NCBI GenBank assembly: GCA_963809485.1
Contig: CAWEJX010000012.1
Coordinates: 64,001 to 128,000 of the forward strand
Reading direction: 5' to 3'
Length of the DNA: 64,000 bases
Source: an uncultured Acidobacteriota bacterium
Lineage (GTDB): Bacteria; Acidobacteriota; UBA6911
Shown here: in pieces, positions 17,097 to 41,793 of the stretch
Layout: every line of letters starts with the position of its first letter
Position numbering within the stretch: position 1 is the stretch's first letter
The notes under the pieces: generated by a model
The model's input: only the letters and a program-made list of their open reading frames with translations
Told to the model about the DNA's origin: nothing
Databases searched by the model: none
Position numbers and translations under genes: made by a program

Positions 17097-17100
17097 CCGA

Positions 17101-18285: not shown

Positions 18286-18334
18286 CAGCCACCTCTTCAG
18301 CACGATCCGATCGTTCCAGCTGTATGCTTTGGAT

Positions 18335-19693
18335 CTATACCTCGCCAATTCCAATACCAAAATGTTTTCTCAGTTCAGTGACATAATCCGGATCCATGCA
18401 CCCCGCCTGTTGTTTTTCCAGCAAATCTACTCGTGTGGGCCTTCCGGGTGGGAACTCGGGCGTCCTGGAAATGACCTTCTCCTGCTCCAGATGCGCAAGG
18501 TCCTGCTTCGACATGCCCAACAAGGAACAAAGAACGTATTCGTTGTCCTCTCCAAAATGAGGAGCTCGTTTCAGTGCAGATTTCTTGAATCCCCGGAACT
18601 TTGCCGGTATCTGGCTGGGTATCGGTCTCTTACCTATGCCCTCCCCGTGGTCGACACACTGAAAGAAGCCTCGCTTCATGAGGTGAGGATTCAGGTTGAT
18701 TTCTTTCATGTTGAGCGCCGGCCCGGCCGGAATTCTCAACCTCTGCAGGGTATACAATACTTCGAATTTGTCCCGCCGAGCAGTCCATTGCTCAATGAGG
18801 CAATCCAATTCAGGTTGCCTTGCAAGCCTGGCCTGCCTGGAGGAGAATGCCGGGTCCCTTAAGGCTTCCGGCTCATGAATCTCCCGGACGAAGCGTTTCC
18901 ATTGGCTATCGGTTTCTATGGCAATCGCCACCCATTCGTCATCTCCCTTACAGCGGTAACAGCCGTGAGGGGCACATCCCGGATGACGATTGCCCATGCG
19001 TTTCCGGTCGCGAGTGTTCAGGATGTAATCGAGAACTATGTCGCCCAGATGACAAATGGTGGCTTCTCTTCCGGAAACATCCACGTACTGTCCCTTGCCG
19101 GTTTTCCTCTGATGGAAAAGTGCGGTCATCAGCGCCATGGCGGCATGTGCGCCCGTAACCCAATCCCCGTATGCGAAACCGGACAGAAGCGGGGGCTCAT
19201 CAGAATTGCCGGTGTTGTGCGTCAAACCACTCATCCCCTCCATGCCCGGCACATACATATAGTAGTCTTTGAGGGGGCCATCGTGTCCCAAACCGCTGAT
19301 TGAAACCATGATGATTCGAGGATTGATCTTCTTTATGCGTTCGTAGTTCAATCCCCAATTGGTCATGACCCTGGGCGAATAGTTCTCAATGACTGCGTTG
19401 CTCACTTTTAGCAGCTGCCTGAAGATATCGCGTCCTTCTTCGGTGGCCATGTTGAGTGAAATGGCCCGTTTGCCTGCATTGAGGGAGTGAAACAGGCAAC
19501 CGCGGTTCCAGGGATCGGTGCCCGGGTTGTTATCGGGATAGACATTGGCTCGCGTAAATACGTCGGGGCGTTGCCATGATTCTATCTTGATAACTTCAGC
19601 CCCCAATTCGGCCAGTATCTTGGTGGCAACGGGACCCGCAAAAACCATGGTCAGATCGATAATCCTGATGCCCTCTAAAATCTTGTATGCCAT
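18335..19693 (-). CDS. CoA-transferase family III, Asp-containing subunit
   Basis: IDLTMVFAGP...LAELGAEVIKIE, NAGKRAISL, FAYGDW, APHGCYRC. Confidence 0.88.
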   Translation of the reverse strand: MAYKILEGIRIIDLTMVFAGPVATKILAELGAEVIKIESWQRPDVFTRANVYPDNNPGTDPWNRGCLFHSLNAGKRAISLNMATEEGRDIFRQLLKVSNAVIENYSPRVMTNWGLNYERIKKINPRIIMVSISGLGHDGPLKDYYMYVPGMEGMSGLTHNTGNSDEPPLLSGFAYGDWVTGAHAAMALMTALFHQRKTGKGQYVDVSGREATICHLGDIVLDYILNTRDRKRMGNRHPGCAPHGCYRCKGDDEWVAIAIETDSQWKRFVREIHEPEALRDPAFSSRQARLARQPELDCLIEQWTARRDKFEVLYTLQRLRIPAGPALNMKEINLNPHLMKRGFFQCVDHGEGIGKRPIPSQIPAKFRGFKKSALKRAPHFGEDNEYVLCSLLGMSKQDLAHLEQEKVISRTPEFPPGRPTRVDLLEKQQAGCMDPDYVTELRKHFGIGIGEV

Positions 19694-19708
19694 TCTCGTC
19701 CCGATCGT

Positions 19709-20914
19709 TTATATGATCCCGGCGCTCTGCAATTTTTTGATTTCTCTTTGTGTGTACCCCAATCCCCGATAAAACTCACGATTGTGCTCTCCCAACAGCG
19801 GAGCCCTTCCGGGGAGCCACGGTGTTTTGCCCAGTTTGACTGGCGATCCGGGGCTGGCAATTCTGCCCAGATGTGGATGATGCGTCGTATCAAAGAACTT
19901 CCTGGCTTTCAATTGCTGGTCCTTGAAGAGTTCTCCGGCGCTCAGGACGGGAGTGAAGGCCAGGCGCAGCTCCTGGGCTTCGGCTGTAATGTCCCATTTG
20001 TTGCGGCTCATCAGCCACGGAATGATCAGGGCGTCAAATCCTTCCGGATCGGCCATGCGCGTTCGCGGGTCGGCAAAAAAGCCGCTATTTTGAAGTTCAG
20101 GTTCGTTGATCAGAAAAGGAATATTCGGCGCGCCTCCGATGCCGGGCGTGAGGCTGATCCATCCATCTTTACAGGGGACGCTGTAACCTATGGGGTAACC
20201 GTGGATGGCAAATGGATTGGTGCGTCTGCTAAATCCCAGGTACGAATATTCCGTAACATGTCCCATTAAAGTGCTGGCAACACACTCCATCATGCCTACA
20301 TCTATCGATACACCACTATTGTTCTTTGCCCGACCTATCAGAGCCGCTACTGTCCCTATATAGCTCAGCACCCCGGTCGAGAATTCCGCCTGGTATCCTC
20401 CTTGTACTGCAGGTCTTGTTTTGGGTTTAGTGCCCGGTCTCATCGGGTACACTGTCCCGCCGAGGGCCGATACCGTGAGATTATTTGCGCGGTAGCGACG
20501 GTAGGGCCCGGTTTTGCCAAAAGCTGAAATGGAGGTCACGATCATGCGGGGATTGATGGTCCGCAGTATTTTCCCGGATAAACCCAGTTTTTGGAGAGTG
20601 CCCGGAACATAGCTTTCCACAAAAATATCTGTTGTTTTCAAAATCCGCTTTAATATTTCCGTCCCTTTTTTGCTTTGGACGTTTAATGTGATGCTTTTCT
20701 TATTCGTATTCAGATAAAAGAAAGTGCCGCTCTTCTCGAGGTCGTACTCATCGTTTGGGAACGGCCCTATTTCCCGGGTGATGTCCCCAAAATTCGGTCT
20801 TTCGACCTTAATCACTTCAGCGCCAAAAGAAGCAAACAATTTCGTGCAATAGGGACCTGCGATCCCCTGCGTAAGGTCCAGTATCTTAACGCCGCTGAAC
20901 ACCCGTTCGCTCAT
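19709..20914 (-). CDS. CoA-transferase family III, subunit with Glu at the Asp position
   Basis: MSERVFSGVKILDLTQGIAGP, NTNKKSITL, GYQAEF, APLLGEHN; ATG 20914 avoids overlap with the upstream gene. Confidence 0.85.
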   Translation of the reverse strand: MSERVFSGVKILDLTQGIAGPYCTKLFASFGAEVIKVERPNFGDITREIGPFPNDEYDLEKSGTFFYLNTNKKSITLNVQSKKGTEILKRILKTTDIFVESYVPGTLQKLGLSGKILRTINPRMIVTSISAFGKTGPYRRYRANNLTVSALGGTVYPMRPGTKPKTRPAVQGGYQAEFSTGVLSYIGTVAALIGRAKNNSGVSIDVGMMECVASTLMGHVTEYSYLGFSRRTNPFAIHGYPIGYSVPCKDGWISLTPGIGGAPNIPFLINEPELQNSGFFADPRTRMADPEGFDALIIPWLMSRNKWDITAEAQELRLAFTPVLSAGELFKDQQLKARKFFDTTHHPHLGRIASPGSPVKLGKTPWLPGRAPLLGEHNREFYRGLGYTQREIKKLQSAGII

Positions 20915-20957
20915 AAAATCACGCTGACTTGCCGGCAACAGAGATGTTCGTACCATA

Positions 20958-20971
20958 ATACGTATACGTAC
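20958..20971. promoter_or_regulatory. Palindromic operator-like site (13/14) upstream of the CoA-transferase block
   Basis: ATACGTATACGTAC in the short intergenic gap, 44 nt before ATG 20914. Confidence 0.6.
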
Positions 20972-21035
20972 ATGGCGGCTTTCAACAGGCATCCTGTGGT
21001 TCGGTTGAATCGAGTCTGCATATAAATTGGCCGTG

Positions 21036-22761
21036 CTACTCAGCCGGCAGGATTTTTTCCCAGTTTGCCGGCAATTGGATCCTTTTGCTGACCGGGGGCC
21101 CTTGCTCGTGGTTTTGGACATAGCCTCTGCTGCGATTTCGCCCGGAGTCCCCACTGACCACAATCCCAATCCATTCGGGCTTCAAAAATACCGGAACCAT
21201 TCTTGCCGGATCGTCTGACTCGCAATACAGGTGTGAAATCAGCTTCTCGTCCACCCTTCGGCGCAGGCTGAAGCCGGTAAAACCTCCCTGCCAGGCGAGT
21301 CTTTCCATTGAGGCCACAGACACCTTGGAGTGGTCATACAAATACTGCTGCACGTCCTTTTTCTGCAACCCGTCTTTTGCCAGCACGCGTGCTATGCTTG
21401 GACTGATTACCAATAAAGGAAAAAATTTCCCCCAATTGACGGCCATGTGGGTCCAGGTCGACATGGCTCCCCCGAACACTTCCACGAATGTGTCCAGGTG
21501 GTCCCTGGCTTTATCCCCTCCACTGGCAATCGGCGCTGTTGCGTATACAACACTCTGGACGGTGACGACACTATCGTCGGGTTTAAAGCCGCGAGAAACG
21601 CTGAACGATTCCCATCCAAGCTCGGTCAATACATCCTCATTCTCGGCCAGAGCTACCTTGAATGTTTCACCGATCGTCGCCTTATCCGTTGTTCCGGGTG
21701 GTATCCGCAAACCGGCCACATTCCTCATGAACAGCCTCAAAAAGCGGCCCATGCTGGTATTGGCCTGGCGGCCAACTCGCATCACCCCGGTTTCATAGTT
21801 GATATTCAGGTCTTTTATTATGGGGCCATTGAGAACAATCAGCGGCTCCCAGCCGGGGGTACTGCCGGCATCCTCAATCCGGAATTCAGGATCGGAAACA
21901 GCCTCTATAACGGCCAGGAGAACGGGCATATATTCCGGTCTGCACCCTGCCATTACGCCGTTAACAGCGATGTTCCAGACCGTGGCCGCCCGGCTTTCGG
22001 GAAGCAAAATCCCGATGACTTCTTCCCGCGACCGGTCCGTAAATTGAAGAAACTTTTCGACTCTGTCGATGGTCGGAGGGATCACCGGGAGACCATCGGT
22101 CCATTGTCTCCTGATAAAAAACTCCTGAACTTCATCCAAAGTCCCCCGGAAAATGATTTGGTCCGGTTCCGGTTCTTTTGTTCTGGCCGCCTGCGTTACA
22201 GGTTTGGTAAATACCTGAATGATATTGTCGACAAGGGTACCGGTAACCTTTTGGATCAACTCTTCCCGGCTGTCTACGGACACCACGCCTGGATACTCCG
22301 CCACGGGCAGATTCTGGACTCCCAGGCTCTGGCCCACTGTCTGGACTTGTTTCAAAAAGCCGGTGGTGATAATCGAGGCTGAAGGAATGCCGGCTTTTTC
22401 AGCAACTACGCTTGCCCGCGCAACCGCGGGCGAGCAGCTGCCTCAGCCTCCGACTCCGGATATAACGGCATCACAGCCGATATTGACGAAGTCTGTCTGC
22501 CAGGGTGGCAATGATCTCGGCTTCTTGCGGGCCATGCGTATTGCCGAAGGTCTCATATTCAATGAATTTTACACCCGGATATCGCTCGGACAGTGAGGCT
22601 CGGATGAGAGGAAAAATTTCTTCCGCCCTGAAACCGTAGTCCGACAACTCACAGATAGTCTTGCCGGATAAATCCGCAATTCGAGGCGCCAGGGTTACCT
22701 TTTCAGATATTATTTTCCCAAGAGGCCATACAACTTCGTATCCCGTCTCTTGCATCATCAA
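21036..22761 (-). CDS. UGSC-family selenoprotein, fused cytoplasmic form (Sec at TGA 22443-22445); one frameshift near 22478
   Basis: After removing one base: GCDAVISGVGG-[TGA]-GSCSPAVARASVVAEKAGIPS, in frame with ORF 21036..22355 (QWTDGLPVIPPT); hairpin at 22414-22431. Confidence 0.82.
22414..22431 (-). promoter_or_regulatory. Candidate SECIS element
   Basis: Perfect GCCCGCG-GUUG-CGCGGGC stem-loop 11 nt after the UGA; G first in the loop. Confidence 0.7.
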
Positions 22762-22851
22762 TCTCCCGATCTCGCCGTGGATACACGGCTTTCAGCATAT
22801 TCGCCTCAAAAAACCGATCCTCTCTATCCCAATGCAATTGGCGGATACACC

Positions 22852-24594
22852 TTATTTAATCGTCGGACTTCCCCATCCTCCGTATTTAGAGAGGAGGGAG
22901 TGCCAGTTTTGAGGAACGTGTATCGGTTTGGTTACAAAATGCGATGGCCCATATCCCCAGGTCCCTATATAGGCAATCATGTCGGGACCGGGGCCTCCAG
23001 CAACGCAGACCTTGAGGCTTTCCGGATTGAGAAGCAGCGGTACCGGGGCATTCGGGTCTTTCTGATGTTTTTCAATAACCCATTTCGGCAGCCTGCAGAA
23101 TCCCGGGGCTTCCCTTCCGTCGAACACCTCGTTTCCGGGCAACTGGATTCTTTCGTATAGCTTTTCCTGGAGTTTCTTTCTGGAAAAACCTTCCCGACGG
23201 ATAGCCTCAAATGCAGTCGGCGAAATAAGCACCAGATTGTTGTAGATACAGTTAAGAGCATACCGGTCATATTTCGCTTTTGCCTGGAGGCTAATATGGG
23301 AAATGATTCTCTCGACGGAAGGAGGAGTCGGCAATACCAGGTCCGGCTGCCAGGACATGGCCGGCATCACGCTGATTGTCGGCTGATCGTCAGGAAATCC
23401 TTCGGCGACTCGCAATGGTTCCCATGCGCCTGAGTATGCCGATTCATTCTCTCCTATCAGGGAGTAATATCTGAAAGGGCTCCCGAAGGCTTTCATGTCA
23501 TTGATGCCGGGCCAGGTTTGGCCCAGGTTCATCATTATCAGCTTAAGCGCCCGCCCGATCGCTGCATTCGCTTTCCATCCCGGACCCACTGTGCAAAAAC
23601 TATCATTTATATTGAGTTCATCGATCAGCTTTTTCCCGCTGACAACAAAGAAAGGAGCCACCTGGCCGGATGTGCACTGCACGCCTATGAGGTCAAACAA
23701 GGGATCGATGATCGCTTCCACCGCAGCCAGGATGACGGGCATATGCTGCGGCAGGCACCCGGCCATCGCCGCATTGACCGCGATCTTCTCTATGGTCGCG
23801 TTCACTCCACTGGGAGGGAACCGGGCTATGACGTGCTCGCGCGGCAAGGATGCCCCTTCAAGCATTCTTGCCACTGCCTCTTCCGTCGGCGGTGCCAGCG
23901 GCAAGCCATCGCTCCAGCCATGATTCAGGAAAAAGCGCTCCATTTCCTCCTGAGCTGCAAGGAAATCCTTGCCGCCGAATGCCAGACTCGCTTCATTGAC
24001 TTCCGGTATCTCAGGAGGCTGCGGGGACCACCGGGTCAAAGATCTGACAACCTCGTCCGCAACCTTCTCGGCTATCTCCAATTTCTCAATTTCCTCTGCA
24101 GGCGGTACATAATCCAAAATCAACGGAGCCACTGCCAGGTCTTCCAAACCTTCGCTCCTTGCAAGAAACCTGGCGTTGGATTTAAAACAGTTTGTGACTA
24201 TGAATGCCACCGGCTTCCCCAATTTCTCAATACGGATGGCATCCGGGGCGGTTCGGGTCGTGCTGCCTCCCGACATTCCCATCGCGACGATCACGGCATC
24301 GCTATTGTCGGCAACCTCTCTGAGTTTAGCCGCCCTGGCATCCGCATCCCCCAGCACCGACATTTCCCACGTGCGGAATTCGGCGTCGGGCATTCTGTTT
24401 CTCAGGGCCTTGTCCAGGTAAGGATAGAATATCTGGCCCACCGGGACGCGGTTTCTGAGGATGCCGATCTTCACCCCATTCAGGTCCTTCAGACGAGGCG
24501 CATTGGGTATTGGAGCAATCTCCGAACTCGCCGTGGGATTCAAAACCCTCAGATGCGTTTGGCCGCTGGTCACGTTGGTATCCTCCCGGAGCAA
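22852..24594 (-). CDS. UGSC-family fused protein lacking Sec/Cys (GM-S-GG-S)
   Basis: VLNP...APRLKDLNGVKIG, DAVIVAMGMSGGSTTRT, IEKLGKP, GWSDGLPLAPPT. Confidence 0.82.
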   Translation of the reverse strand: MLREDTNVTSGQTHLRVLNPTASSEIAPIPNAPRLKDLNGVKIGILRNRVPVGQIFYPYLDKALRNRMPDAEFRTWEMSVLGDADARAAKLREVADNSDAVIVAMGMSGGSTTRTAPDAIRIEKLGKPVAFIVTNCFKSNARFLARSEGLEDLAVAPLILDYVPPAEEIEKLEIAEKVADEVVRSLTRWSPQPPEIPEVNEASLAFGGKDFLAAQEEMERFFLNHGWSDGLPLAPPTEEAVARMLEGASLPREHVIARFPPSGVNATIEKIAVNAAMAGCLPQHMPVILAAVEAIIDPLFDLIGVQCTSGQVAPFFVVSGKKLIDELNINDSFCTVGPGWKANAAIGRALKLIMMNLGQTWPGINDMKAFGSPFRYYSLIGENESAYSGAWEPLRVAEGFPDDQPTISVMPAMSWQPDLVLPTPPSVERIISHISLQAKAKYDRYALNCIYNNLVLISPTAFEAIRREGFSRKKLQEKLYERIQLPGNEVFDGREAPGFCRLPKWVIEKHQKDPNAPVPLLLNPESLKVCVAGGPGPDMIAYIGTWGYGPSHFVTKPIHVPQNWHSLLSKYGGWGSPTIK

Positions 24595-24598
24595 TGCA

Positions 24599-25624
24599 TT
24601 ATTTCGGCCGGATCCCTTTCGAATAATTCACCCGGCCTACATAGAATTCCTCCTCAGGCTCGCGCGGCGTTACACCTGCCCTTTTCAGGCCTGCCCGCAT
24701 GGCATCCTTCAAGCGCTGGAACAGGAATGACGTCGGTTTCCTGAACATGCCTCCATTCCCGCCAGTCAGCCACTGCATGTATTTCATTCCCAGCATCCCG
24801 CCCTGAAACGCGGCATCCCGGGCGCCCATAATTATCGGAGTCAGCTCCCAGTAGAGTTCCATCCCTTTGGAGAACTCTCCTTGAGCGAACAGATTGAACA
24901 TCCGGACTATTCTTGGATTCTCCGCTGTCTGGTCGAAGATTACGTAGTCGGCCGGCCCCGCCCACTGTTGTCCGTATTTGGCGACAGTGATCGGCCATTC
25001 CGCCATTTCTGCGGCCTGAAGCAGCACTTGATCGCCGACACGATGGTGAACGTCAACCCACTTTCCAAGGCCGTCACTGAGATAGGCCTTTATTGCCACT
25101 ACGTTGGGTATTTGACAGATTCTCTCGATGAGCGCCGGATTGAACATGCTTGGATGAAATCTTCCGAAATCGTAAAAAGGTTTCGGCCAGAGATCGACAG
25201 CGAGGTTGATGGAATCGCATATCTTTTGGGTGACGCGATAGATGTCCTCTTCCGATTTGGCATAAAAGTTGCCCGGCCAGCCCAAAAGAGTGTGGGTTCC
25301 GCCCACGCTTTCGAAATAATTCAGCAATTCTATCGATTGATCGGCATCGTCAAGGGCTCCGAACATGGACACAAGAACTTTGCCCTTGGCTTCTTCAGCG
25401 ACAATTCTTACAAATTGCCTGCGCTCTTCATTGCTCAAAGCGCTGACTTCTAAGGCGCAAAATACGCTGAACATGCCTTTTTCTATGTTGTGCCTGACGT
25501 CGTGCCGGATCCCTTCCTCATCCAGCGCCTCGAGGTCCGGAGTGTACGAGGGTTGAATGACTCCATCCAATCCGCGATAGTGCTTTTTGGCCCATGCCTT
25601 CGCTTCTGGTTTTGTAAATTCCAT
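24599..25624 (-). CDS. Dihydrodipicolinate-synthase-family (class I aldolase/hydratase-like) protein
   Basis: LDEEGIRHDV, LSNEERRQFV, Schiff-base Lys in IPNVVAIKAY. Confidence 0.8.
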   Translation of the reverse strand: MEFTKPEAKAWAKKHYRGLDGVIQPSYTPDLEALDEEGIRHDVRHNIEKGMFSVFCALEVSALSNEERRQFVRIVAEEAKGKVLVSMFGALDDADQSIELLNYFESVGGTHTLLGWPGNFYAKSEEDIYRVTQKICDSINLAVDLWPKPFYDFGRFHPSMFNPALIERICQIPNVVAIKAYLSDGLGKWVDVHHRVGDQVLLQAAEMAEWPITVAKYGQQWAGPADYVIFDQTAENPRIVRMFNLFAQGEFSKGMELYWELTPIIMGARDAAFQGGMLGMKYMQWLTGGNGGMFRKPTSFLFQRLKDAMRAGLKRAGVTPREPEEEFYVGRVNYSKGIRPK

Positions 25625-25696
25625 AAACAGCTCCTTGCAGTGGTGATAACGCGTTTTATCCGTTATCGCATATACATAGGTGTCTTCTATTTCGTG

Positions 25697-26743
25697 TCAT
25701 GCCTCATATTTTTTGAGCCTGTAACCTTTTGCATAATTTACGCGGCCCACATAAAACTCCTCCTCCGGCTCACGCGGAGTAATTCCCAGGGCTTTCATAC
25801 CGGCCCTGATGGCATCCTTTTGATAATCGTACAGACGGCCTGTAGGCTGCCGGACGGTTCCGCCATTTCCGCCGGCGCACCAGTGAGCGTATTTATCCGA
25901 TAGAGCGGTCACGATGCCGGTGTGAAAGTAGGAATCCGCCAACGACCCCTGTGCGCCCGGCCGGGACATCCCCCAGAAGATATCCATAGCCTTGTCGATC
26001 TCGCCCTTGATTAAATTGTCGAATATCCTCACGATTCGCGGATTCTCAGGAGTCTGCATACAATAAAAAGGCCCTGCGCCGGCCCACTGCTGCCCGTACT
26101 TCGGGATAGTGAAAAACCATCTGTCCGGCATCGGATCACTGACCAGGATTCGATCACCGCAAAGATGGAAAGCCTGAATGGTGAGTGCAAGGGAACTGCC
26201 GCCGGTGACTTTCATCGCCACGACGTTGGGGATGTCGCAAATTCGGCGCATCACGTCCGGCGGGAAATAACTTGGATGGAAATGCCATGTGTGCAGCCGG
26301 CCGGGATAAAACGTTATTGCCAGGTTGGTGGACTCGCACATGAATTTATACATCTGGAAAATGTCTTCTTCCGACCGGGGGTAATATTGCACCGGATGGG
26401 CAAGCGTGACATGAGTGCCGCCGACCTTTTCGATATGATGCAGCATCTCGATATCCTGCTCGACCGTGTCCTGCATGACGCTTACGGAACTGTGCATTTT
26501 GCCTTTGGCTTCGTCGCAGACTATCTGCACGAATTGCTTCCGTTCCTCGAATGTCATGCCGCAGGCCTCGGGCGCAGCCATTATCGAAGTAAAGCCATTG
26601 GCGTAAATCTGGTTGACATCGAAACGGATGCCATCGTCATCCAGCTTTTCAAGGTCGGGAGTGAAAGAAGGGAAAATCGGCACTTCCAGGCCTTTCATAT
26701 GCTTCTTTGCCCACAATTTAGCTTCTGATTTGGTGTATTCCAT
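25697..26743 (-). CDS. DHDPS-family protein
   Basis: MTFEERKQFV, IPNVVAMKVT; paralog of 24599 and 31012. Confidence 0.8.
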   Translation of the reverse strand: MEYTKSEAKLWAKKHMKGLEVPIFPSFTPDLEKLDDDGIRFDVNQIYANGFTSIMAAPEACGMTFEERKQFVQIVCDEAKGKMHSSVSVMQDTVEQDIEMLHHIEKVGGTHVTLAHPVQYYPRSEEDIFQMYKFMCESTNLAITFYPGRLHTWHFHPSYFPPDVMRRICDIPNVVAMKVTGGSSLALTIQAFHLCGDRILVSDPMPDRWFFTIPKYGQQWAGAGPFYCMQTPENPRIVRIFDNLIKGEIDKAMDIFWGMSRPGAQGSLADSYFHTGIVTALSDKYAHWCAGGNGGTVRQPTGRLYDYQKDAIRAGMKALGITPREPEEEFYVGRVNYAKGYRLKKYEA

Positions 26744-26809
26744 ATTTGTCTCCCCGGTCCGATTGCAGATTTCCGATTGAATAAGGTCTATTCAATCCGC
26801 GACCCGCGG

Positions 26810-27863
26810 TTATTCAATCACCCTGGTAATAGAGCCATTCCCAAAGGTTGGAATAAAGCATGAATGCTTTCCCGGTCCACCCAAAACCATTACGACAAAG
26901 TCATCCTTATGGGCGATCGGCATCCATTCACAGTCTGTAAATTCACCATACTTTTCAGGGAATTTTCTCCTGTACTGGAGATTTTCTTCAGACAAACTCT
27001 TTTTAGAGAAGCGAGCATTTTCAAAAAGAAATTCCCTAATCTGCTCCTTTGAAAATCCGTCTTTGGCGATCGCCGCTGCATGTTCCGGGCACAGCATCAA
27101 GACAGGTTCGCCGGTGAAAAAAAGCGCATTGTTGCTGCCCGGTTGAGCCATAGTAGCGGCAATGGTCCTCAATAAGTCTTTGCCAAGGACACTGTTATGT
27201 TCATTGATATTGTGGGGGCCTTCCGCAGCAAACACAGTGACCGTGCTATCCCCGGCTTTGAAAGCCTCTCTCAACATGGAAAGGCTGCCACGGACTTTCC
27301 TCTTCGTTTTCGGCAACGCAGTAGGTGTATTTTCCAGGCTGACCCTGCGTGGACTTGTCGATCTCGCCCGGCATGGCCCCTCCGATGTTGATCAGGATCA
27401 ACCTGACGGCGCGGCCTATGGTTGCATTGGCTCTGACTCCAGGTCCGAATGCATTGCCTTTGCCGTTCAATCCTATTCTTTGCGCGATGGGACCGTTGAC
27501 CACGATCAAGGGACTGCAGGGATGCGTTGTTGATTGCACGCCCCGGAGCCCGAATTTCTCATCAGACATCGCCTTCAGGGCAGCGACAATCACCGGCAAA
27601 TACTCGGGCAGGCATCCAGCCATCACGGCATTGATGGCAGTCTTTTCCAGCGTGGCGGCTCCCATCCTTGGAGGAAGGATCGCCACAACTTCCTGCGGAT
27701 CCCCATTGCCGATAGCGGACAGCATTCTGCGTACCCGCTCCTCCGTGGGTGCGATGATCGGCAGGCCGTCGCTCCAGCCAAACTTGATGAAGGCGTTGTT
27801 TACAGCGTCTTCACAATTCTCAACGCGAACTTTTTTCGATACCAGCCTGCGGACGTTTTCCAC
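26810..27863 (-). CDS. Stand-alone UGSC partner (C-terminal) domain protein; frameshift near 27260
   Basis: GWSDGLPIIAPT, AINAVMAGC, RANATIGRA, AENEEESPW; continues GDSTVTVF...GGPGKHS in ORF 26810..27316. Confidence 0.8.
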
Positions 27864-27884
27864 CGGAGATCACCTCTGCATGAA

Positions 27885-28763
27885 TCAGGCGCTCAATCCG
27901 AGCAGTTTGGCCGGATTTTTCTTGGCCATCAGGGTAATTTCTTCCTCGCCTATGCCATATTTAATCAAAGTGACTATAAACATTCTCATGCCTTCGACAG
28001 GCAGCGGGTTCCATATTTGCCCGAGATCCGTCGACATAATGCACTTTTCGGCGCCCACTGCCTTGATTACGTCCACCATCTCGGCGGGATCATGTCTGAA
28101 CTCGGATGCCTGGAAGGCCAGGAAGGTGCACTCGATAAAAGCGCCGTTCTTTGCCAGCTGAATCAGATCCTGCTTGGTGAAAGCCTCGGAAAAAAACTCG
28201 TGATCCAGAGGATGCGTGACCACAAATTTATCGATGCCCAATCTGCGGGCTTCCGCTTCCAGGGCAAACGTCTCGGTCGGCGACATGTGCCCGCTTGCCA
28301 GAACCATATCGTGTTTCTTGATGATCGGGAGCATCGGACCGATCTCCGGCACCAGGCGCCCCTTGCTATCCAGGATCGAGTACCCCTCTCCTTTAAGGGG
28401 AAGCCCGAGTCCTCTCATTTTGGAAATGGAGTTGGTGGATGAGAATGTCGGCATCCAGACCACGCGCGCCCCTGCTCTCGCGGAATATTCGACCGCATAC
28501 ACATTCAATCCGCCCATTTCATAGTCCAGGCAGACGCTGCCAAATGCGGTGAAATCAGGAACCAGCTGGTTCACCATCATCGCTATTGGAGCGGACGGGT
28601 AGAAGTGGTTTTTTATGACGAAGGCTTTCATCCCGGCCTGCTTCGCCTGATTGGCAGCTTCCAGTGCATCCACCCGGCATTTGAAGGCGTCGGGGCCGGG
28701 ATGAAAATGCATATCGATGGATCCTGACAGCAATTCGTCATAGTCAATGATCTTCATGGCCAT
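27885..28763 (-). CDS. Metal-dependent TIM-barrel hydrolase (amidohydrolase superfamily, DUF6282-like)
   Basis: IDMHFHPGPD, KNH, VWMPT, SGH, THP, STDLGQ. Confidence 0.75.
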   Translation of the reverse strand: MAMKIIDYDELLSGSIDMHFHPGPDAFKCRVDALEAANQAKQAGMKAFVIKNHFYPSAPIAMMVNQLVPDFTAFGSVCLDYEMGGLNVYAVEYSARAGARVVWMPTFSSTNSISKMRGLGLPLKGEGYSILDSKGRLVPEIGPMLPIIKKHDMVLASGHMSPTETFALEAEARRLGIDKFVVTHPLDHEFFSEAFTKQDLIQLAKNGAFIECTFLAFQASEFRHDPAEMVDVIKAVGAEKCIMSTDLGQIWNPLPVEGMRMFIVTLIKYGIGEEEITLMAKKNPAKLLGLSA

Positions 28764-28774
28764 GTGTGCTCTCC

Positions 28775-29348
28775 CTATCGCGTGCCGACAAGCACCGCGA
28801 CTATGGTATCAACAGCATTTTCAGCCTTTTTTCGCACTTCCTCCGGGGTAACGCCTGCAAGGGGATGCGGAATCGTAACCAGGCGCGGAGCCGATATCCC
28901 CCTGGCCATGTGAAACTGATTTGGCCAACGACAGGAATGCATCGCTGCAAATGATGGCCGTCGGAATCCCTCTCTTTTCCAATTCTGTCGAATCGTGGAT
29001 ACTCCACGATGTGCAGGAACCTCAATCGCAGATCCCATAAACAATGGCGTCACATTTGGGCGCAAGCTGCTTCATCTCTTCCGGAGTCAGGGGAACCGTC
29101 GCGCCGGTCCCTCCTTTTTTAATGTGGACAATCTCCGCAAATTGAAATTTTTGACGGAGTGCTGCTTCCACATGATCCAAAAAAATATCGAAGTTGGGTT
29201 TGCGGTTATCCACCAAGCCGATGACCTTGCCATTCAGGTCATCCAGACACATTGCGATGTGTTCTTGTTTTACAGTCGTGGTTGCAGTCGGATCCAATAC
29301 TTCGATATATTCTTTCACTCTATTCGCCCTGAAATGTCGGAATTCCAA
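28775..29348 (-). CDS. Stand-alone UGSC selenoprotein (Sec at TGA 29022-29024); frameshift near 28912
   Basis: CDAIVYGICD-[TGA]-GSCTSWSIHDSTELEKRGIPTAII, then after a 1-nt shift MARGISAPRLVTIPHPLAGVTPEEV; hairpin at 28992-29010. Confidence 0.85.
28992..29010 (-). promoter_or_regulatory. Candidate SECIS element
   Basis: Perfect AUCGUGGA-GUA-UCCACGAU stem-loop 11 nt after the UGA. Confidence 0.7.
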
Positions 29349-29353
29349 AAACT

Positions 29354-30274
29354 CTACAGTTGATCCATCAGCCTTTGTATCGCGATTGCTGCCGTCGCGC
29401 CATCTCCTACTGCAGTGACTATCTGTCCCCGGGAATTGCTTCGGATGTCACCCGCCGCGAAAATATTGGGGAGGTTTGTTTGCATCATTTCATTCACCAG
29501 AATGCGTCCCTGGTTGTCGAGTGACAGTAGATTTCTGATAAAGCCGGTGTTCGGATCGGTTCCCACGGCGATCAGGACGCCATCGATACTGAGGGTTTCG
29601 GTCTTTTGTGTCGCCCTGTCGTAAATCTCAACCGCTTCAACCTTGCCGCTACCTGATATCTTGACCAGCTCTGCGCCGCATCGAAGCTCGATCTTGCTAT
29701 TGGAACTAATCCTTTCCTTGAGAACCGCGGAAGCGGAAATCGTCCCTTCGACCTCGATCAGATACACTTTGGCTGCGATCCTGGCCAGGTAGAGAGCCTC
29801 GGTGACGCCCCTGTCTCCGGCGCCGCATACAACCACTGTCTTATCGTGAAACTGACCGCCGTCACAAAGAGCGCAATCAAATACGCCCTTCTCCTCCAGT
29901 TCCCGCTCCCCGGGTATATTCAGTTTCCTGGGACGGCAGCCGCTGGCAATTATCAGCACTTTAGCCGTGAAGTATCTCCCGTCGGTCAGCTGCACGCAGG
30001 TCGATTCGGAATACGATTCGATCCCGGCGACCTCGGCCATTTCCATCTGCAGGCCCGAGTTGACGGCCTGGATCGTCATTTCCGAAGCCAGCTGGGGCCC
30101 TGCGACGCCGTCACTGAATCCGGGATAATTCTCGATCCAGTCGGCATTCTTAATGCTGCCGCCAAAACCATCCTTATCAACCAGCAGGGTCCGATACTTG
30201 CCCCGGCTCAAATAGAGGCCGGCCGTAAGCCCCGCAGGGCCTCCACCAATTATTATGGCATCAAAGTCCCACAT
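29354..30274 (-). CDS. trxB: Thioredoxin-disulfide reductase family protein
   Basis: IIGGGPAGLTAG, IENYPGF, redox CALCDG, IFAAGD, QIVTAVGDGATAA; GAGGAGG RBS. Confidence 0.85.
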   Translation of the reverse strand: MWDFDAIIIGGGPAGLTAGLYLSRGKYRTLLVDKDGFGGSIKNADWIENYPGFSDGVAGPQLASEMTIQAVNSGLQMEMAEVAGIESYSESTCVQLTDGRYFTAKVLIIASGCRPRKLNIPGERELEEKGVFDCALCDGGQFHDKTVVVCGAGDRGVTEALYLARIAAKVYLIEVEGTISASAVLKERISSNSKIELRCGAELVKISGSGKVEAVEIYDRATQKTETLSIDGVLIAVGTDPNTGFIRNLLSLDNQGRILVNEMMQTNLPNIFAAGDIRSNSRGQIVTAVGDGATAAIAIQRLMDQL

Positions 30275-30419
30275 CGATTCCTCCTCTCGGTCTTGCGCAT
30301 GCCGGAGGATGGCCGGACAATTGGAACTCCCAAGTGACGGGAGTATGCCTCAGGCGGAGGAGCTGATCCCTGATCAGGATGCACCCCGCTGAGCCAATCG
30401 GATCATTTACCCGAAGCTA

Positions 30420-30475
30420 TTGACAAAAATCATAAACTACTTTATATCTAACCTACATTATGTACGTATACGTAC
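30420..30475 (+). promoter_or_regulatory. TTGACA promoter-like element plus perfect palindrome GTACGTATACGTAC (30462-30475) in a divergent region
   Basis: TTGACA-17 nt-TATATC; palindrome starts 42 nt after TTGACA, the same geometry as at 43857-43912. Confidence 0.65.
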
Positions 30476-30599
30476 TAGGGTACGAATAATTTTTTCTTAT
30501 CATACGTAAAGCTTGGTTTAAAATCAAAATAAAAGGAAAATGAAGGTCAGGTCGCGCATCCGCTGAACCAATGATCTTGTTTTCGAGAATGTTTTCCGC

Positions 30600-32633: not shown

Positions 32634-35136
32634 ATGGCGATTGAGTCTGGCAGCAAGTATGCCGAAGAAGTTGGATCATGGCAGGAAATTCTTATACCTG
32701 TCCGTTCCGCGCGGGTTGAAAAGGCCAGGGAAAGAGTGCGCAAAGAAGCCGAAATCTGCCTGGAACGCATTCGAGCCGAACTCAAGGCCTATAACCAGTA
32801 TAAAGACCAGCCTTCCATCATTCAGCGAGCCCGCTTCCTTGAGACTTTCCTGAGGGAGAAAAGTGTGCTTATCCAGGAGGATGAACTCATTATAGGTACC
32901 GTGGGAAGTAAGCCTCGCTCCGCTTTTATAACAACGGCGAATATCGCCTCTATCGAAGAAGAGCTGGATGATCCGGTAAAGGACTTCTCAATACGGTCCT
33001 ATGACAGGATTTTAGTTCATCCTGAGGAGAGAAAAGAACTGAGAGAAGAGATTATTCCGGCCGTTAAAGGCAGTGCCATCTCTCTTTTCGAGTATAATTT
33101 TAAAAATGTCGACCGGGATATTCTCGAACATGCCGCTCCCGGAGTCTCATCCTGTCCGCATATACCTATTATCGGTGACGTATCGATGGCAAGAGAAGGC
33201 GGCCACATGTTCCTCAACTTTGAAAAGGCCCTTTGTAAAGGGCTTAGAGGAATCAAGGAAGAGGTCAGGGAGAAGTTGGCGGAACTTGACCAGCCATATC
33301 GCGGATTTGACCGAAAACAGAGACGAGAATTTTACGAATCCGTGCTCATCACCCTGAATGCCGCTACGGAATATTTCCAGAAATATGCCGGACGCGCGCG
33401 TGAGATGGCAGCAAAAGAAACAGATCCGAAACGAAGGACGGAACTGGAACATATTGCCGAGACATGCGACCGGGTGCCGGAAAATCCCGCGCGGGACTGG
33501 TGGGAAGCTCTACAGTCCATCTGGTTCCTGTTCACTCTGAGTTGGATGGAACACGCCACTTTTGCAGTACATTTTCTCGGCCGAATCGACCAGATTTTGT
33601 ATCCCTTCTACAAGAAAACCGTAGAAGATGAGAAGAAAATGACCCGGGAAGAAGCTCTGGAGCTTCTGGAATGCTTCCTGGTGAAATTCAACGAACCAGC
33701 CTGGGCACTCAACTACGAGTGGTCGCAATGGGCAACCGGCCAGGGACTTTCCCAGACAATGGTGATCGGCGGACAGACCAGAGAGGGCAAAGATGCCTGC
33801 AACGAGGTTACCATGCTTGTACTGGAAGCTATGGAACAATTGCGTCTGAATCAGCCGGAATTCGCCATGAGGATATGGGAAGGGACACCCGATAAATATC
33901 TTAAAAAGGCGACCGAGCTTATCCGCCTCGGGCTCGGCTATCCGAAATTCATCGGTGACCGGAAAGGAATTCAGATGGCAGCCAAGGCCTATCCGGACCT
34001 GACAATCGAAGACTGGCGCCAGTTCGCTGTTGCCGGATGTTCGGAGATAGGTCTGCCTTATATCACTATGGATAACGGTTATGAAGCAATCGCACTGGCC
34101 TCCAAGTGGATAGAGCTGGTCTTGAGTAACGGTAAATGCGCGGTATGCGGCAAGCAGATCGGACTGGAAACCGGCGATCCCAGGAAATTTGAATCTATGG
34201 AACAGGTGAAAGAGGCCTACCGCAAACAGGTATTCTACTGGGGCGAGTATATGGCAAAGGCCGAGAAGATTTTCAAGGAAAACCAGAGCGAATGGTATCC
34301 TGCTCCATTCTGCTCGGCCTTTACCGAAGGACCCCTTGACAGAGGGCGAGATATTACCAGGGGCGGCGCCTGGTACACCGTGTACGGTTTCCTGCTGGCC
34401 AGCATCGCCGACGCAGCGGATTCTCTGGGAGTAATAGACAAGCTTATCTACCGTGATAAAAAGGTTACCTGGGACCAGCTGATTGAAGCGGTGAATGCCA
34501 ACTGGGAAGGTTATGAAAACATAAGGCAGCTCTGCGTCAACGGTGTCCCAAAATACGGGAATGACGACGATTACGCCGACGGCTGGGCAATCTGGGTAGC
34601 CGATGTCTGGGCCGACCTTATAGACTGGCTCAATACCAGAAAAGACCTTATGCCGAGGTGGGGAGGCAGATATCTGGCAGGTGGCCTGGTGGCAATAGCC
34701 AGTACCCAGTTCGGAGAATCGATCGGCGCTACACCAAACGGGCGTAAACATCCCATGCCGGTGGCTGATACCTGCTCTCCTGTACAGGGTGTCGACCGGA
34801 ACGGTCCCAGCGCCGTGGTCAAGTCATTCAGTAAATTGCCTACTCACCGGTGGGCGCTCGGCGGTCTGATAAACATCCGGTTAAATCCGAATCTGTTTAC
34901 AACCGATGCTGACCTTGAGAGATTTGCGGCTTTTATTCAGAGCATGTGAAGAGTTAGGTCTGTACCATGTTCAGTTCAATATAATTTCTGCGGAACTGCT
35001 GCGTAATGCAATGAAAGAACCGGAAAAATACCGGGACCTGCTGGTCCGGGTAGCCAGCTATGTCGCCTACTTTGTTGAGTTGAGTCCGAACCAGCAGATG
35101 GACATCATCAACAGAACCGAGCAACAGAGCTGGTAA
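32634..35136 (+). CDS. Glycyl-radical-family enzyme with Ser in place of the radical Gly (RVASY); frameshift near 34932
   Basis: GRIDQ, VIGGQ, Cys loop AGCSE, PKYGNDDD, GATPNGR; C-terminus HVQFNII...LLVRVASYVAYF in ORF 34906..35136. Confidence 0.88.
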
Positions 35137-35169
35137 CAGACCAAAAGCGCACCGGGGAGGGGTATCGGC

Positions 35170-36099
35170 TTGACGAATAAATCGGCTGACCCTGCAAAGA
35201 AACGACATGTCCTCAGCATTACCCGGATGACAGTTCATAACGGACCCGGGATACGAACCTTAATACTTCTGAAAGGCTGTCCTTTACGCTGCATCTGGTG
35301 TTCCACACCCGAATCCCGGAAAGAGACCCCGGAAATCGCTTTCTACCCGCATCAGTGTATCCTCTGTAACGACTGTATTCCGGTCTGTCCGAAGAACGCG
35401 ATAGCAACCGGTGATAGAGCGGTGGTCATAGACAGGGAGTTATGTGATAACTGCGGGCGGTGCGTCGATGTATGCAACACGGAAGCCCTGAGGCTCCTGG
35501 GACAGCAATATACAGCAGACGAACTCGTCCACGAGGTGATGAAGGACGAAATTGTCCATAAACATTCCGGCGGCGGAGCAACAGTCTCGGGAGGAGAGCC
35601 TCTGCTTGAACCTGAGTTTGCCGCCGAATTGCTCCGCTCTCTTAAGGAGAACGGAATTAATACCGGAGCGGATACCTGCGGTTTTGTCCCCCGAAAAAAT
35701 ATCGAGGCCGTCCTCCCCTATGTCGATTTTTTTCTCTGGGATATCAAACACATGGATGATGATACCCACCGCAAACTGACCGGAGTATCCAACCGTCTCA
35801 TCCTGGACAATCTTTGTTTTGCTTCGGGCAATAATATCCCGGTTTATTTGAAAGTACCCGTGATACCCGGCTGCAATGATTCCGAGGAAAACCTCAGGGC
35901 TGTCTGTAATTTCGCCGGAGACCTGCACTCGCTGGTTGAGATAAACCTCCTGCCGTTGCACCATCTGGGCAAGGCCAGATATGCTGCTCTGGGCCTCGAT
36001 TACCCCATAGACGGGATTCCTTTCATTAAGGATGATGTTCTCACGGAGATGAAACGCCTGGCAGAATCATACGGATTAAAATGCAGCATAATCGGGTAA
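35170..36099 (+). CDS. Glycyl-radical-enzyme activating enzyme (radical SAM, ferredoxin-like insert)
   Basis: HNGPGIRT, GCPLRCIWC, CILCNDCIPVCP, CDNCGRCVDVC, SGGEP, DIKHMD, LLPLH. Confidence 0.9.
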   Translation: MTNKSADPAKKRHVLSITRMTVHNGPGIRTLILLKGCPLRCIWCSTPESRKETPEIAFYPHQCILCNDCIPVCPKNAIATGDRAVVIDRELCDNCGRCVDVCNTEALRLLGQQYTADELVHEVMKDEIVHKHSGGGATVSGGEPLLEPEFAAELLRSLKENGINTGADTCGFVPRKNIEAVLPYVDFFLWDIKHMDDDTHRKLTGVSNRLILDNLCFASGNNIPVYLKVPVIPGCNDSEENLRAVCNFAGDLHSLVEINLLPLHHLGKARYAALGLDYPIDGIPFIKDDVLTEMKRLAESYGLKCSIIG

Positions 36100-36126: not shown

Positions 36127-36330
36127 ATCGACGAATTGCTCTCCGGCTCAATAGATATGCATCTTCATTCCGGTCCGGACGAGATTCCGGGGCGCGCGGA
36201 TGCCGGTGAAACCGCCGAACAGGCTGCCGACGTCGGAATGAAAGCCATCGTGCTGAAAACTACAGTTATCCCACCACCCCGGTGGCTATCATCGCCCGGG
36301 AGATGGCGCCTGAAGTTGAGGTTTTCGACC
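36127..36330 (+). pseudogene. 5' fragment of a DUF6282-like hydrolase paralog
   Basis: IDELLSGSIDMHLHSGPD...GMKAIVLK matches the N-terminus of 27885..28763; no start codon, and it ends after about 65 codons. Confidence 0.75.
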
Positions 36331-36376
36331 CTTACAACTGTTCAAAAGGAATAAAGTGGAAGAAAGGAGAGAAATC

Positions 36377-38218
36377 ATGCGACGTTTTAGAATAGCATTA
36401 ATCTGTTTATGTGCTCTGGGCATTGTGTTAGCGGTATACGTGGTGACCAAAGGAGGTATAGAGGATGATACCTTAACAAGCAAGAAAGTAACAGTGCTGA
36501 ACCCGAGAGGTATAGCTCCTCCAATCGAAATGATACCCATGGCACCCAGGCTTGACACCCTGGAGGGCAAAACAATATACCTCGCAGGTATAAATTTCCA
36601 ACCGTTGCATCAAGGCATGATAGAAATCCACAGAATACTCGCCGAAAAATATCCCAAAACCACCTTTATACTCAAGGTCAAAGAGGGCTCCTACTTGGTT
36701 AATGACCAGAAGCTATGGGATGAAATCAAAGAAAAGGGCGACGGAGCGATAGTCGGTATCGGGCAGCTAGACACCAATGCACCGGCGACTGTCATCTTCT
36801 CCTCAATACTGGAAAAAATGGGGATACCCACGGCACCTGTTGTCACCGCAGGGTTTCCGAATCTCACAAGAAGCTTCGCGTACAAGAAGGGGATGCCTGA
36901 ACTGCGATTGACTTTTATTCCCCATCCTTTCTCAGCCAGACCAGTCGAAGTACAACGGGAATATATAAAGGGTAAAGATCCCATAAGCGGCAAACCAATT
37001 ATTGAACAAATCGTTGAGGCCCTCACCAAACCGCTAACCGATAAAGAACGAAAGACAGGTACCATAGAAAGACCCATACGAAGAATCCTGGGGCCTGATA
37101 CTCCCGAGAACCTGGCCAAGCTCTTTCTTGAAAACGGATGGACGGACGGTCTTCCGATAATTCTTCCTACGCAAGCAAGGGTAGCCGCGATGCTCAAGGG
37201 AACAAGCCACAAGCCTGATGAAGTAATCGGCATGATGCAGCCCACTCCTCCTAACGAGGCATGGGAAGGCTCTTTAAGGCAACTTGGCGGTAGTCAGGCG
37301 AAAGGAGGAGCTGAATTACCGGTAACGATGCAGCCTTCGCCTCCCTACGAGTCCTGGCAATATACTGTGGAGCATGTCGCTATCAATGCCGTGATGGCGG
37401 GAGCCAGTAAAGAGCATTTTCCTGTTATACTATCTATAGCCTCCACAGGAGTAACCTCATTATTCAGTTCCTGTTCCTCTTTCGCCAGGATGGTTGTCGC
37501 CAACGGGCCAATCCGCAAAGAGATAAAGATGAATTCCGGACTGGCCGCGTTGGGCCCCTTCAATCATGCCAATTCCGTCATCGGAAGGGCGTGGACGCTG
37601 ATATCCAAGAATCTGGGAGGCTCGATACCGGGTGAAACATATCTGGGTGATCTGGGTAATGCCCTCAACTACAACAATTTATGTTTTGCGGAGAATGAAG
37701 AGGCACTGCCCGAAGGATGGAGTCCCCTGCATGTGCAGAAAGGCTTCAAACCTGAAGAAAGCGTTGTCAGTATCTTGAGCGGGTGGAGTTTGATTAATTA
37801 TGGTGCTTTTAAGCCGTACCCGATTCACGAGGTCGCCAGGAAATTGTTTATAAGCTTTGAAACCAGCGGAGCCAGTATGGGTCGCCCTACTCTGTTATTA
37901 AGTCCCATAACGGCAACAGATCTAAAGAATGAAGGCTTCGAGAGTAAGGAGAAGTTGAGCCAGTGGCTCAAGGAAAATACCTATATGACCCTCTGGAATT
38001 ACTGGGCGATGAGGCCTAAGGACTTAGCATCCGCTAAAGCAGGAATCGAGCCATTCGCCTCAATGCTAAAACAGTCCCCGGGGGCATACTCACCGCAAAA
38101 ATCTCTCGCGCCCAACTCACAGGTTGAGATATTGGTAGTCGGTGGGGGGACCGAGGTATCCTGGCAGGCCGGAGACTTCGGGTACATGGTATCCGCATCG
38201 GTGGATAAGTGGAGGTAG
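36377..38218 (+). CDS. UGSC-family fused protein lacking Sec/Cys (GQ-L-DT-N), N-terminal membrane anchor/signal
   Basis: AAGGAG RBS; VLNPRG, APRLDTLEGK, LEKMGIP, IPHP, GWTDGLPIILPT. Confidence 0.8.
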   Translation: MRRFRIALICLCALGIVLAVYVVTKGGIEDDTLTSKKVTVLNPRGIAPPIEMIPMAPRLDTLEGKTIYLAGINFQPLHQGMIEIHRILAEKYPKTTFILKVKEGSYLVNDQKLWDEIKEKGDGAIVGIGQLDTNAPATVIFSSILEKMGIPTAPVVTAGFPNLTRSFAYKKGMPELRLTFIPHPFSARPVEVQREYIKGKDPISGKPIIEQIVEALTKPLTDKERKTGTIERPIRRILGPDTPENLAKLFLENGWTDGLPIILPTQARVAAMLKGTSHKPDEVIGMMQPTPPNEAWEGSLRQLGGSQAKGGAELPVTMQPSPPYESWQYTVEHVAINAVMAGASKEHFPVILSIASTGVTSLFSSCSSFARMVVANGPIRKEIKMNSGLAALGPFNHANSVIGRAWTLISKNLGGSIPGETYLGDLGNALNYNNLCFAENEEALPEGWSPLHVQKGFKPEESVVSILSGWSLINYGAFKPYPIHEVARKLFISFETSGASMGRPTLLLSPITATDLKNEGFESKEKLSQWLKENTYMTLWNYWAMRPKDLASAKAGIEPFASMLKQSPGAYSPQKSLAPNSQVEILVVGGGTEVSWQAGDFGYMVSASVDKWR

Positions 38219-41545: not shown

Positions 41546-41793
41546 AACCACAGCATATTTCATTACCTGGAAAAGTGCGGAGGCATGGAAGGCCGGCGCC
41601 TATTTTCCGGATAAAGCCAAGCAAGTGTGACCTGGAGCCGGCATTATTCGTCCTTCTGGAATGAGTCCATGGCATTATGCGAGATGTTTCTCCCCGAATG
41701 GGGAGGAGAGTCCCCAGATAGAATATAAGTACTATCAAGCCGCCACGGGGAAAAACGGTTCTCAATCTTCAGACTGCTTGGAAGGAGGAAGAA

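Follow-up and report, generated by a model that had tools for sequence, protein, structure and literature searches.

The 64,000-nucleotide stretch analysed here (hereafter the window) comes from an uncultured Acidobacteriota bacterium of the UBA6911 lineage (assembly GCA_963809485.1, contig CAWEJX010000012.1, positions 64,001 to 128,000), and at 28775..29348 on its minus strand lies a gene of the UGSC family, whose product we compared with selenoprotein B of glycine and proline reductase (GrdB and PrdB). The gene stands in a run of seven genes on one strand with short gaps (22852..30274), extending from a thioredoxin reductase (TrxB)-like gene to a gene in which a UGSC-like domain is fused to a second domain, here called the partner. 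Its 190 codons run from a TTG start at 29348 to a stop at 28777..28775, across an in-frame TGA and a one-base frame break: the first frame reads ...KCDAIVYGICD-TGA-GSCTSWSIHDSTELEKRGIPTAIICSDAFLSLAKSVS, the reading continues in the +1 frame as ...ARGISAPRLVTIPHPLAGVTPEEVRKKAENAVDTIVAVLVGTR, and the +1 frame after the break reads ...ARGISAPRLVTIPHPLAGVTPEEV...GTR-stop. Profile positions 2-110 of the NCBIfam model NF041046 matched the first frame (E = 2e-31) and positions 106-146 the second (E = 2e-8), while the Pfam model PF24696 gave 136.9 bits on the first frame alone (cut-off 25) and the read-through protein P0325 (190 residues, ...SVSMARGISAPRLV...) gave 152.6 bits with NF041046 (cut-off 125). 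With both curated cut-offs exceeded, the window protein is a full member of the UGSC family, and it is almost certainly a UGSC selenoprotein. A first-pass annotation of this DNA had already given the text, limits and frameshift correction of the gene correctly, with NF041046 and PF24696 covering both pieces.

The TGA, at 29022..29024 on the minus strand, is read as selenocysteine (Sec, U109) within the motif D-U-G-S-C-T-S-W, and both UGSC family models continue past it. Cys forms (C-G-S-C-[TS]) occupy the site in 105 of the best 150 UGSC representatives. Near homologs in the protein database were 105-124 residues long in 13 of 17 cases, and all four of these short entries that were fetched ended at the Asp directly before the Sec codon, as would be the case if gene callers had cut them there. 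The genome encodes selB (391 bits, above cut-off) and a tRNA-Sec (70.6 bits). In bacteria, the selenocysteine insertion sequence (SECIS) is a stem-loop shortly past the UGA with a G at the start of the apical loop, the rule applied by bSECISearch, and the window gene carries a hairpin of this kind at 28992..29010 on the minus strand (AUCGUGGA-GUA-UCCACGAU), with eight base pairs and a GUA loop, beginning 12 nucleotides past the UGA. Defining such hairpins by at least 6 base pairs, at most one G-U pair, a loop of 3-6 nucleotides and a start 8-18 nucleotides past the codon, we found one in 24 of the genome's 44 paralogs with a Sec codon, always with a G within the first two loop bases, compared with 0 of 11 paralogs lacking Sec and 27 of 440 random in-frame places. 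The stems vary in sequence among UGSC subfamilies and keep a constant position. An Rfam search over 28000..30500 gave zero matches.

The first-pass annotation had likened the UGSC domain to the active-site region of GrdB on the strength of a GrdB string, and the likeness very probably reflects true homology to the Sec-bearing C-terminal module of GrdB, albeit distant. For the comparison, 80 GrdB loci were taken from named genomes; 66 read through the TGA and the other 14 failed the motif filter. All 66 carried the text ..DAVILTST-U-G[TS]CTRCGA..E.E..G[IL]P..NRI.P..AIP[HY]P[LF]G, with which that string agreed. In both families Sec lies in a U-x-x-C-T motif that ends a beta strand following D-A-[VI], and E.E..G-I-P is succeeded by a P-H-P-[LT]-G loop. 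The similar spacing of these elements noted at first pass held exactly from U to GIP (C at +3, T at +4, E at +13 and +15, GIP at +18 to +20); from GIP to HP, UGSC has 5 additional residues. Aligned with one GrdB by BLASTP, the window protein showed 35% identity over 72 residues (E = 3e-7). Profile-profile comparison of 124 UGSC with 66 GrdB sequences (hhalign) gave a probability of 96.4, P = 1.4e-9 and a score of 70.4 over 88 columns, pairing UGSC 90-183 with GrdB 337-426, compared with scores of 20.8 and 21.9 for reversed alignments and 10.7-17.3 for 20 column shuffles; overall, controls scored 7-22 and true UGSC/GrdB comparisons 59-70. Separately built alignments gave a probability of 95.5 and E = 1.6e-8 over 108 columns, and the C-terminal halves taken by themselves reached P = 2.9e-11 (cross controls, P = 0.83 and 0.13). 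The profile comparison that had been proposed at first pass is significant for the whole alignments and for the C-terminal halves, against flat controls.

Curated models agreed in both directions. The Pfam UGSC model was the second family after GRDB on five of five read-through GrdB proteins (24.5, 22.2, 22.0, 18.0 and 13.7 bits, cut-off 25), matching GrdB 323-423 on profile positions 68-171, and the only other NCBIfam hits of the window protein were GrdB, GrdF and 'various selenoprotein B' (E = 1.6e-4, 3.3e-3 and 4e-3). UGSC is very probably also a distant relative of the Sec module of sarcosine/betaine reductase protein B (GrdF, GrdH) and of PrdB-like proteins. The window protein is not itself a GrdB/PrdB family member: PF07355 gave no match to it at E ≤ 1, and its scores lay below the GrdB cut-offs (TIGR01917, 20.7 vs 602 bits; TIGR01918, 16.2 vs 65.45 bits). 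Two further differences are structural, in that the N-terminal GrdB domain (about residues 1-200) is missing from the 190-residue UGSC, with even the loosest alignment reaching only GrdB 203-435, and the stretch from the first to the second strand is about 50 residues shorter in UGSC.

The way GrdB is recorded accounts for the link having stayed hidden. The Pfam GRDB model (347 positions) ends one residue before Sec, and of 35 GrdB homologs found in the protein database 34 are cut off at the Sec codon, so that the last ~85 residues with the UxxC site are missing from both; the NCBIfam GrdB models cover them. Since the Sec-side end is absent from that model and those entries, Pfam GRDB misses UGSC, and a plain GrdB hidden Markov model (HMM) run on the genome returned one short GrdB-like gene only and no UGSC paralog. 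This short GrdB/PrdB-like selenoprotein, at about 1215735-1216961 of contig C20 (locus L001:724-1950, minus strand), reads DAVLLLPA-U-PGCT...EEAGVPT, has a long C-terminal extension and scores 30 bits with PF07355 over profile positions 224-344; of 200 other genomes surveyed in the phylum, 44 encode short forms like it.

To place the UGSC domain structurally, we used a model of a homolog rather than of the window protein, namely the fused UGSC-partner representative P0031 (560 residues, C-G-N-C), folded with 129 aligned sequences (predicted local distance difference test [pLDDT] 93.8, predicted template modelling score 0.93). Its UGSC domain was modelled as five strand-helix units of flavodoxin-like type, with the Cys pair where the third strand passes into the third helix, whereas a thioredoxin fold has its CxxC where the first long helix begins. 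Judging from this model, the domain does not appear to have a thioredoxin fold; such a fold, combined with an exposed UxxC and no interdomain pocket, was the outcome that the first-pass annotation had named as telling against its reading. It is a predicted flavodoxin-like sandwich of five beta-alpha units, in which Sec would end the third strand and the resolving Cys, three residues on, would lie in the first turn of the helix that follows. From the Sec strand to the C-terminus, the order of elements in P0031 (strand 99-105, Cys107, helix 108-123, strand 128-133, helix 134-146, strand 154-157, helix 166-183) is the same as in a GrdB model (pLDDT 90.7; strand 341-345, Sec348, helix 349-364, strand 369-373, helix 376-382, strand 386-389, helix 404-422), and both models contain the 16-residue helix behind Sec or Cys and the P-H-P loop. 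The shared order, as modelled, is not specific by itself. The alpha/beta class of both folds is very common, and structure searches yielded generic matches only. Among the matches listed by Foldseek and VIA were flavodoxin-like and Rossmann-like domains and no thioredoxin-fold protein, which does not exclude a thioredoxin fold. A search of the window protein against PDB sequences found nothing below E = 0.45.

The partner, called 'Unknown_1' in the literature, is the other recurrent element of the system. Among the best 150 representatives, 18 have it fused behind UGSC. In 11 other genomes of the phylum, which together supplied 14 loci, it lies adjacent or fused to the Sec-UGSC gene at 12, and across these loci it is the only neighbor conserved beside that gene. 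The pairing had been proposed at first pass and is borne out by these counts; we regard it as quite likely that UGSC works together with the partner, and the fusion argues that the two bind each other; the high predicted template modelling score of the fused model (0.93) also speaks for the link. The partner family is large (7,942 of 8,000 scored candidates at E ≤ 1e-3, most of about 371 residues), and no relatives were found in the Pfam and NCBIfam copies searched; the partner family of the reductase proposed below has thousands of members and no model in those copies. PDB sequences searched with a partner profile yielded no match below E = 0.16, the ESM Atlas offered no name beyond 'hypothetical protein', and hhalign detected no likeness to GrdB. 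The Foldseek, VIA-wide and VIA second-look lists for the fused model were dominated by the UGSC domain, and weak Foldseek rows pointing to a class I fumarate hydratase or phosphoglycerate dehydrogenase fold (probability 0.28-0.75) were not trusted. The S/T-S/T loop that the first-pass annotation had singled out in the partner is real: across 58 partner domains of this genome, the alignment has 40 S and 11 T at column 114, followed by 31 T and 9 S at column 115.

Some partner proteins carry a redox domain of their own. Four of eight scanned proteins from other genomes, in two genera, have an N-terminal AhpC-TSA/Redoxin domain with CxxC on the partner, and a fifth gave a weak thioredoxin-like hit. 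These Redoxin-partner fusions (loci L144-L147; genomes G069, G130, G082 and G050; C-P-T-C in L147) adjoin a stand-alone Sec-UGSC gene, with which they form a three-part thiol/selenol system.

In the window, the gene directly upstream of UGSC (29354..30274, minus strand) encodes a TrxB-like flavoprotein with C-A-L-C-D-G, whose stop sits 5 nucleotides ahead of the UGSC start. At 311 bits with TIGR01292 (cut-off 343) it is the second and divergent TrxB of the genome, the other, housekeeping copy on contig C5 scoring 364 bits. Taken together, this gene and the Redoxin-partner fusions place UGSC in a thiol/selenol redox context. As in the thioredoxin systems of grd operons, a TrxB-type CxxC flavoprotein thus precedes UGSC in an apparent single operon; unlike in those systems, a scan of the locus genes (22852..30274) turned up no thioredoxin gene, and the TrxB-like protein falls under the equivalog cut-off. 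The thioredoxin reductase link that the first-pass annotation had drawn to grd clusters turned out to be particular to this locus, with no such neighbor within 5 kb at any of the 14 other loci.

Downstream, on the same strand, a DUF6282 (amidohydrolase-like) gene at 27885..28763 (PF19799, 206.5 bits) follows 11 nucleotides past the UGSC stop and is one of just three PF19799 matches genome-wide. Two genes downstream of UGSC, a stand-alone partner gene (26810..27863; GWSDGLP..., with a GVQSTTHP loop) is split into two open reading frames (ORFs) by a single extra base at about 27251..27263, the two pieces scoring 308 and 176 bits with the partner HMM. Two DHDPS-family (class I aldolase-like) genes at 24599..26743 (PF00701, 40.5 and 32.5 bits) sit between it and the fused UGSC-like and partner gene at 22852..24594 (580 residues; PF24696, 84 bits over residues 17-187), in which G-M-S-G-G-S-T replaces D-U-G-S-C-T, leaving neither Sec nor Cys.

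UGSC is strongly expanded in this genome. A UGSC domain is present in 61 read-through frames, and almost every one of these is joined to a partner domain. The site can be aligned in 55 of them: 44 have TGA (40 of these as U-x-x-C), the remaining 11 carry residues other than Cys, and Cys itself does not occur. The figure of 44 is approximate, since contamination of the assembly is estimated at 7.3% and several genes are split. About 8 of some 60 UGSC paralogs genome-wide are split over frames, which may be due to assembly error or decay. Within the window, the Sec-bearing UGSC genes lie at approximately 7924-9813 (minus), 21039-22851 (minus, split), 28775-29348 (minus), 55180-57174 (plus) and 59464-61251 (minus), and copies without Sec at 12933-14543 (minus), 22852-24594 (minus), 36155-38215 (plus) and 41722-43614 (plus). 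When 200 other genomes of the phylum were scanned, with up to 16 candidates scored per genome, the family appeared in 15, with one or two copies each. For comparison, the literature gives whole-selenoproteome records of 39, 57 and 63 genes (PMC9312934, PMC13188914), and a 2016 census row for UGSC reads 26 and 33, which we take as 33 genes in 26 organisms (PMC5029168), vs some 44 Sec paralogs here. The burst of paralogs offers a natural panel for finding substrates. Three tandem paralogs on contig C4 (340996-348037, plus strand) read G-G-Q-S-W-U-G-A-A-T, that is, Sec without a resolving Cys (U-x-x-A), and each has a 7-bp hairpin 14 nucleotides past the UGA.

The family itself is not new, contrary to the first-pass suggestion of a new enzyme family. 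The name UGSC-containing protein dates from 2007, when it was given to 'a selenoprotein of unknown function' (PMC1976440), the family and its 'Unknown_1' fusion were described in 2007-2008 by Zhang and Gladyshev (PMC1976440, PMC2398784), and Pfam and NCBIfam models exist. UGSC has been grouped with thiol oxidoreductases (PMC2398784, PMC13188914), was represented by 255 sequences in GOS, where it was the top family in many non-marine samples, and ranks among the most abundant selenoproteins of ocean and freshwater metagenomes (PMC2398784). Reviews to 2026 describe it as uncharacterised and place it among thioredoxin-like-fold proteins (PMC13188914); the literature gives function unknown and a 'likely Trx-like' fold, whereas we obtained a flavodoxin-like model with GrdB as the nearest family. 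Motif, length, above-cut-off scores, Sec/Cys alternation and 'Unknown_1' fusion are common to the window protein and/or its relatives, and the window gene differs in standing behind a TrxB-like gene. A 2026 review says of these enzymes, in the part considered, only that glycine is bound by GrdB with release of ammonia, and that PrdB is a GrdB homolog. We found no link between UGSC and GrdB/PrdB in the literature covered; subscription journals, database annotations and supplements lay outside this scope and may record it. The gene is therefore an ordinary member of a catalogued family, to which the homology to the GrdB module and the correction of the fold are additions, and the kinship with GrdB turns an 'unknown redox protein' into a testable proposal of a two-part reductase.

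In that proposal, UGSC would be the redox-active subunit of a two-part enzyme and the partner the other part. NAD(P)H would reduce the adjacent TrxB-like flavoprotein, which, directly or via a thioredoxin-type carrier, would reduce the Se-S bond of U-x-x-C; the selenolate would attack a substrate held by the partner domain, a carbon-heteroatom bond would be cleaved reductively, and Cys112 would resolve the selenoether to Se-S. The cycle is modelled on the mechanism proposed for PrdB/GrdB. The chemistry, which was also that of the first-pass annotation, is plausible; that Sec cleaves the bond reductively rather than merely relaying electrons is a tentative assignment, about as likely as the relay discussed below. 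For the whole chain, from stand-alone UGSC selenoprotein and GrdB-module homolog to redox subunit acting with the partner in reductive cleavage, we estimate a probability of roughly 0.4. What the annotation had observed is thus confirmed, and its interpretation partly supported.

Several results weigh against this chain. Within the family comparison, the N-terminal halves of UGSC and GrdB were not significantly alike by hhalign (P = 0.089; the best local match covers the first strand and a K-x-N-x-D loop), and the third Cys of GrdB (UxxCxxC; U-G-[TS]-C-T-R-C in 66 of 66) is a Trp in UGSC (U-G-S-C-T-S-W). No solved GrdB/PrdB structure was found by phmmer with a full GrdB and the short GrdB-like protein against PDB sequences. 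Sec acting as the nucleophile in GrdB and PrdB is itself a proposal from older literature. GrdE and GrdA were not found in this 95.7%-complete genome: the GrdE HMM, which recovered 55 of 55 positives, picked out none of the 44,474 read-through frames, and PF09338 was likewise without a match, in a search that was also silent in all control genomes. For this reason the pyruvoyl chemistry that holds the Grd/Prd substrate is without a counterpart in this genome. Nor does the partner show detectable likeness to GrdE/PrdA (hhalign probability 0.1), and its candidacy as an analog by descent of the GrdE/PrdA pyruvoyl proprotein was rejected on that result. The TrxB-like, DUF6282 and DHDPS-like neighbors recur at 0 of the 14 other loci, 11 of the 55 aligned paralogs of the genome have neither Sec nor Cys at the site, and this copy contains a one-base frame break.

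The strongest competing explanation confines UGSC to electron relay, with a Se-S/selenol-thiol pair feeding a catalytic center that lies wholly in the partner, so that Sec never contacts the substrate. UGSC would then act as a carrier in the manner of thioredoxin without sharing its fold. We regard it as a serious possibility, though short of an even chance. A Redoxin CxxC fused to the partner beside a separate UGSC gene, as in half of the proteins scanned, resembles a thiol relay, and the partner motif NAVMAGC contains a Cys whose conservation in the broad alignment A5 is 90% or more. Paralogs that have lost both Sec and Cys retain the partner, which therefore can exist without the redox pair, and the literature grouping with thiol oxidoreductases (PMC2398784, PMC13188914) points the same way. 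The Redoxin fusions and the 11 deviant paralogs fit a relay at least as well as cleavage by Sec. Against it, the sole detectable relatives of the UGSC domain are GrdB-type proteins, not carriers; the NAVMAGC Cys is replaced by Ala in 43 of the 58 partner domains of this genome, many of which keep Sec; and a genome would rarely need some 44 dedicated copies of a mere carrier, each with a partner of its own fused to it.

A second alternative is that this copy is a pseudogene, its extra base being real and the locus decaying together with the broken partner gene. The extra base lies at 28909..28910 (coding strand ..tca-ca-tgg.., minus strand), causes a +1 shift and is absent from relatives. In one contig from each of four metagenome runs, all from relatives of 95-97% identity, exactly one base is missing, at 28909 in runs X3 and X5 and at 28910 in runs X1 and X2, and the gene is whole there because the missing base restores the frame. 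Apart from that base the contigs have zero insertions or deletions; one of them, 7,490 bases long, spans all 901 bases compared with 40 differing letters. A frame break in the G5 run at 28898..28902 (GGGG step, P0002) had also been considered and is ruled out by these relatives, which put the extra base at 28909/28910. Some of the UGSC analyses used P0002, which differs from P0325 at residues 147-149 (HGQ vs MAR) and scores 152.4 vs 152.6 bits with NF041046; the results are not materially changed. This exact sequence was not found in public sequencing runs, the best share of sampled words being 0.26; RNA runs reached shares of 0.06-0.10, which are uninformative. Decay would be in keeping with two breaks within 1.7 kb (28909/28910 and ~27251-27263), with a third in a Sec-bearing fused gene near 22440..22500, upstream of the ORF at 21036..22355 on the minus strand, and with the share of paralogs that are frame-split. 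We nevertheless consider a pseudogene improbable, as the frame is intact in all four relatives compared, family scores are full on both sides of the break with no stops or other damage seen, and the breaks that were located, in UGSC and in the partner gene, each consist of one surplus base, as is often the case with assembly errors. An error in the assembly, or else a change that arose very recently, is the likeliest source of the break here.

Convergence would be another way to account for the likeness to GrdB, as would features that Rossmann-like redox loops share in general, with neither common descent nor functional meaning. This reading is already disfavoured and very improbable: both folds belong to a common class for which structure searches are generic, and the N-terminal halves do not match, but four collinear motifs are shared (the DA-hydrophobic strand, U..CT, E.E..GIP with identical spacing, and P.HP.G), the P values of 1e-9 to 3e-11 stand against flat controls, and three independent curated model sets agree.

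Reductive cleavage by UGSC with its partner could also be put more broadly. UGSC and the partner would then form a large unrecognised class of Sec-dependent reductive bond-cleaving enzymes, descended from the GrdB/PrdB module, with a pyruvoyl-free partner and some 44 diversified paralogs in this genome; in this extended form we consider it unlikely. If true, the genome would have one among the largest selenoproteomes known, built from one family, and its ~44 Sec-bearing paralogs would be expected to differ in their substrate loops.

Elsewhere in the window, 32634-36099 on the plus strand and 14675-21169 on the minus strand encode a glycyl-radical enzyme (PFL-like, 529 bits, with the Gly_radical domain cut at the ORF end) with its radical-SAM activase, four family-III CoA-transferases and a MaoC-like hydratase. 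Together with the UGSC genes, these make the region resemble a large island of anaerobic catabolism.

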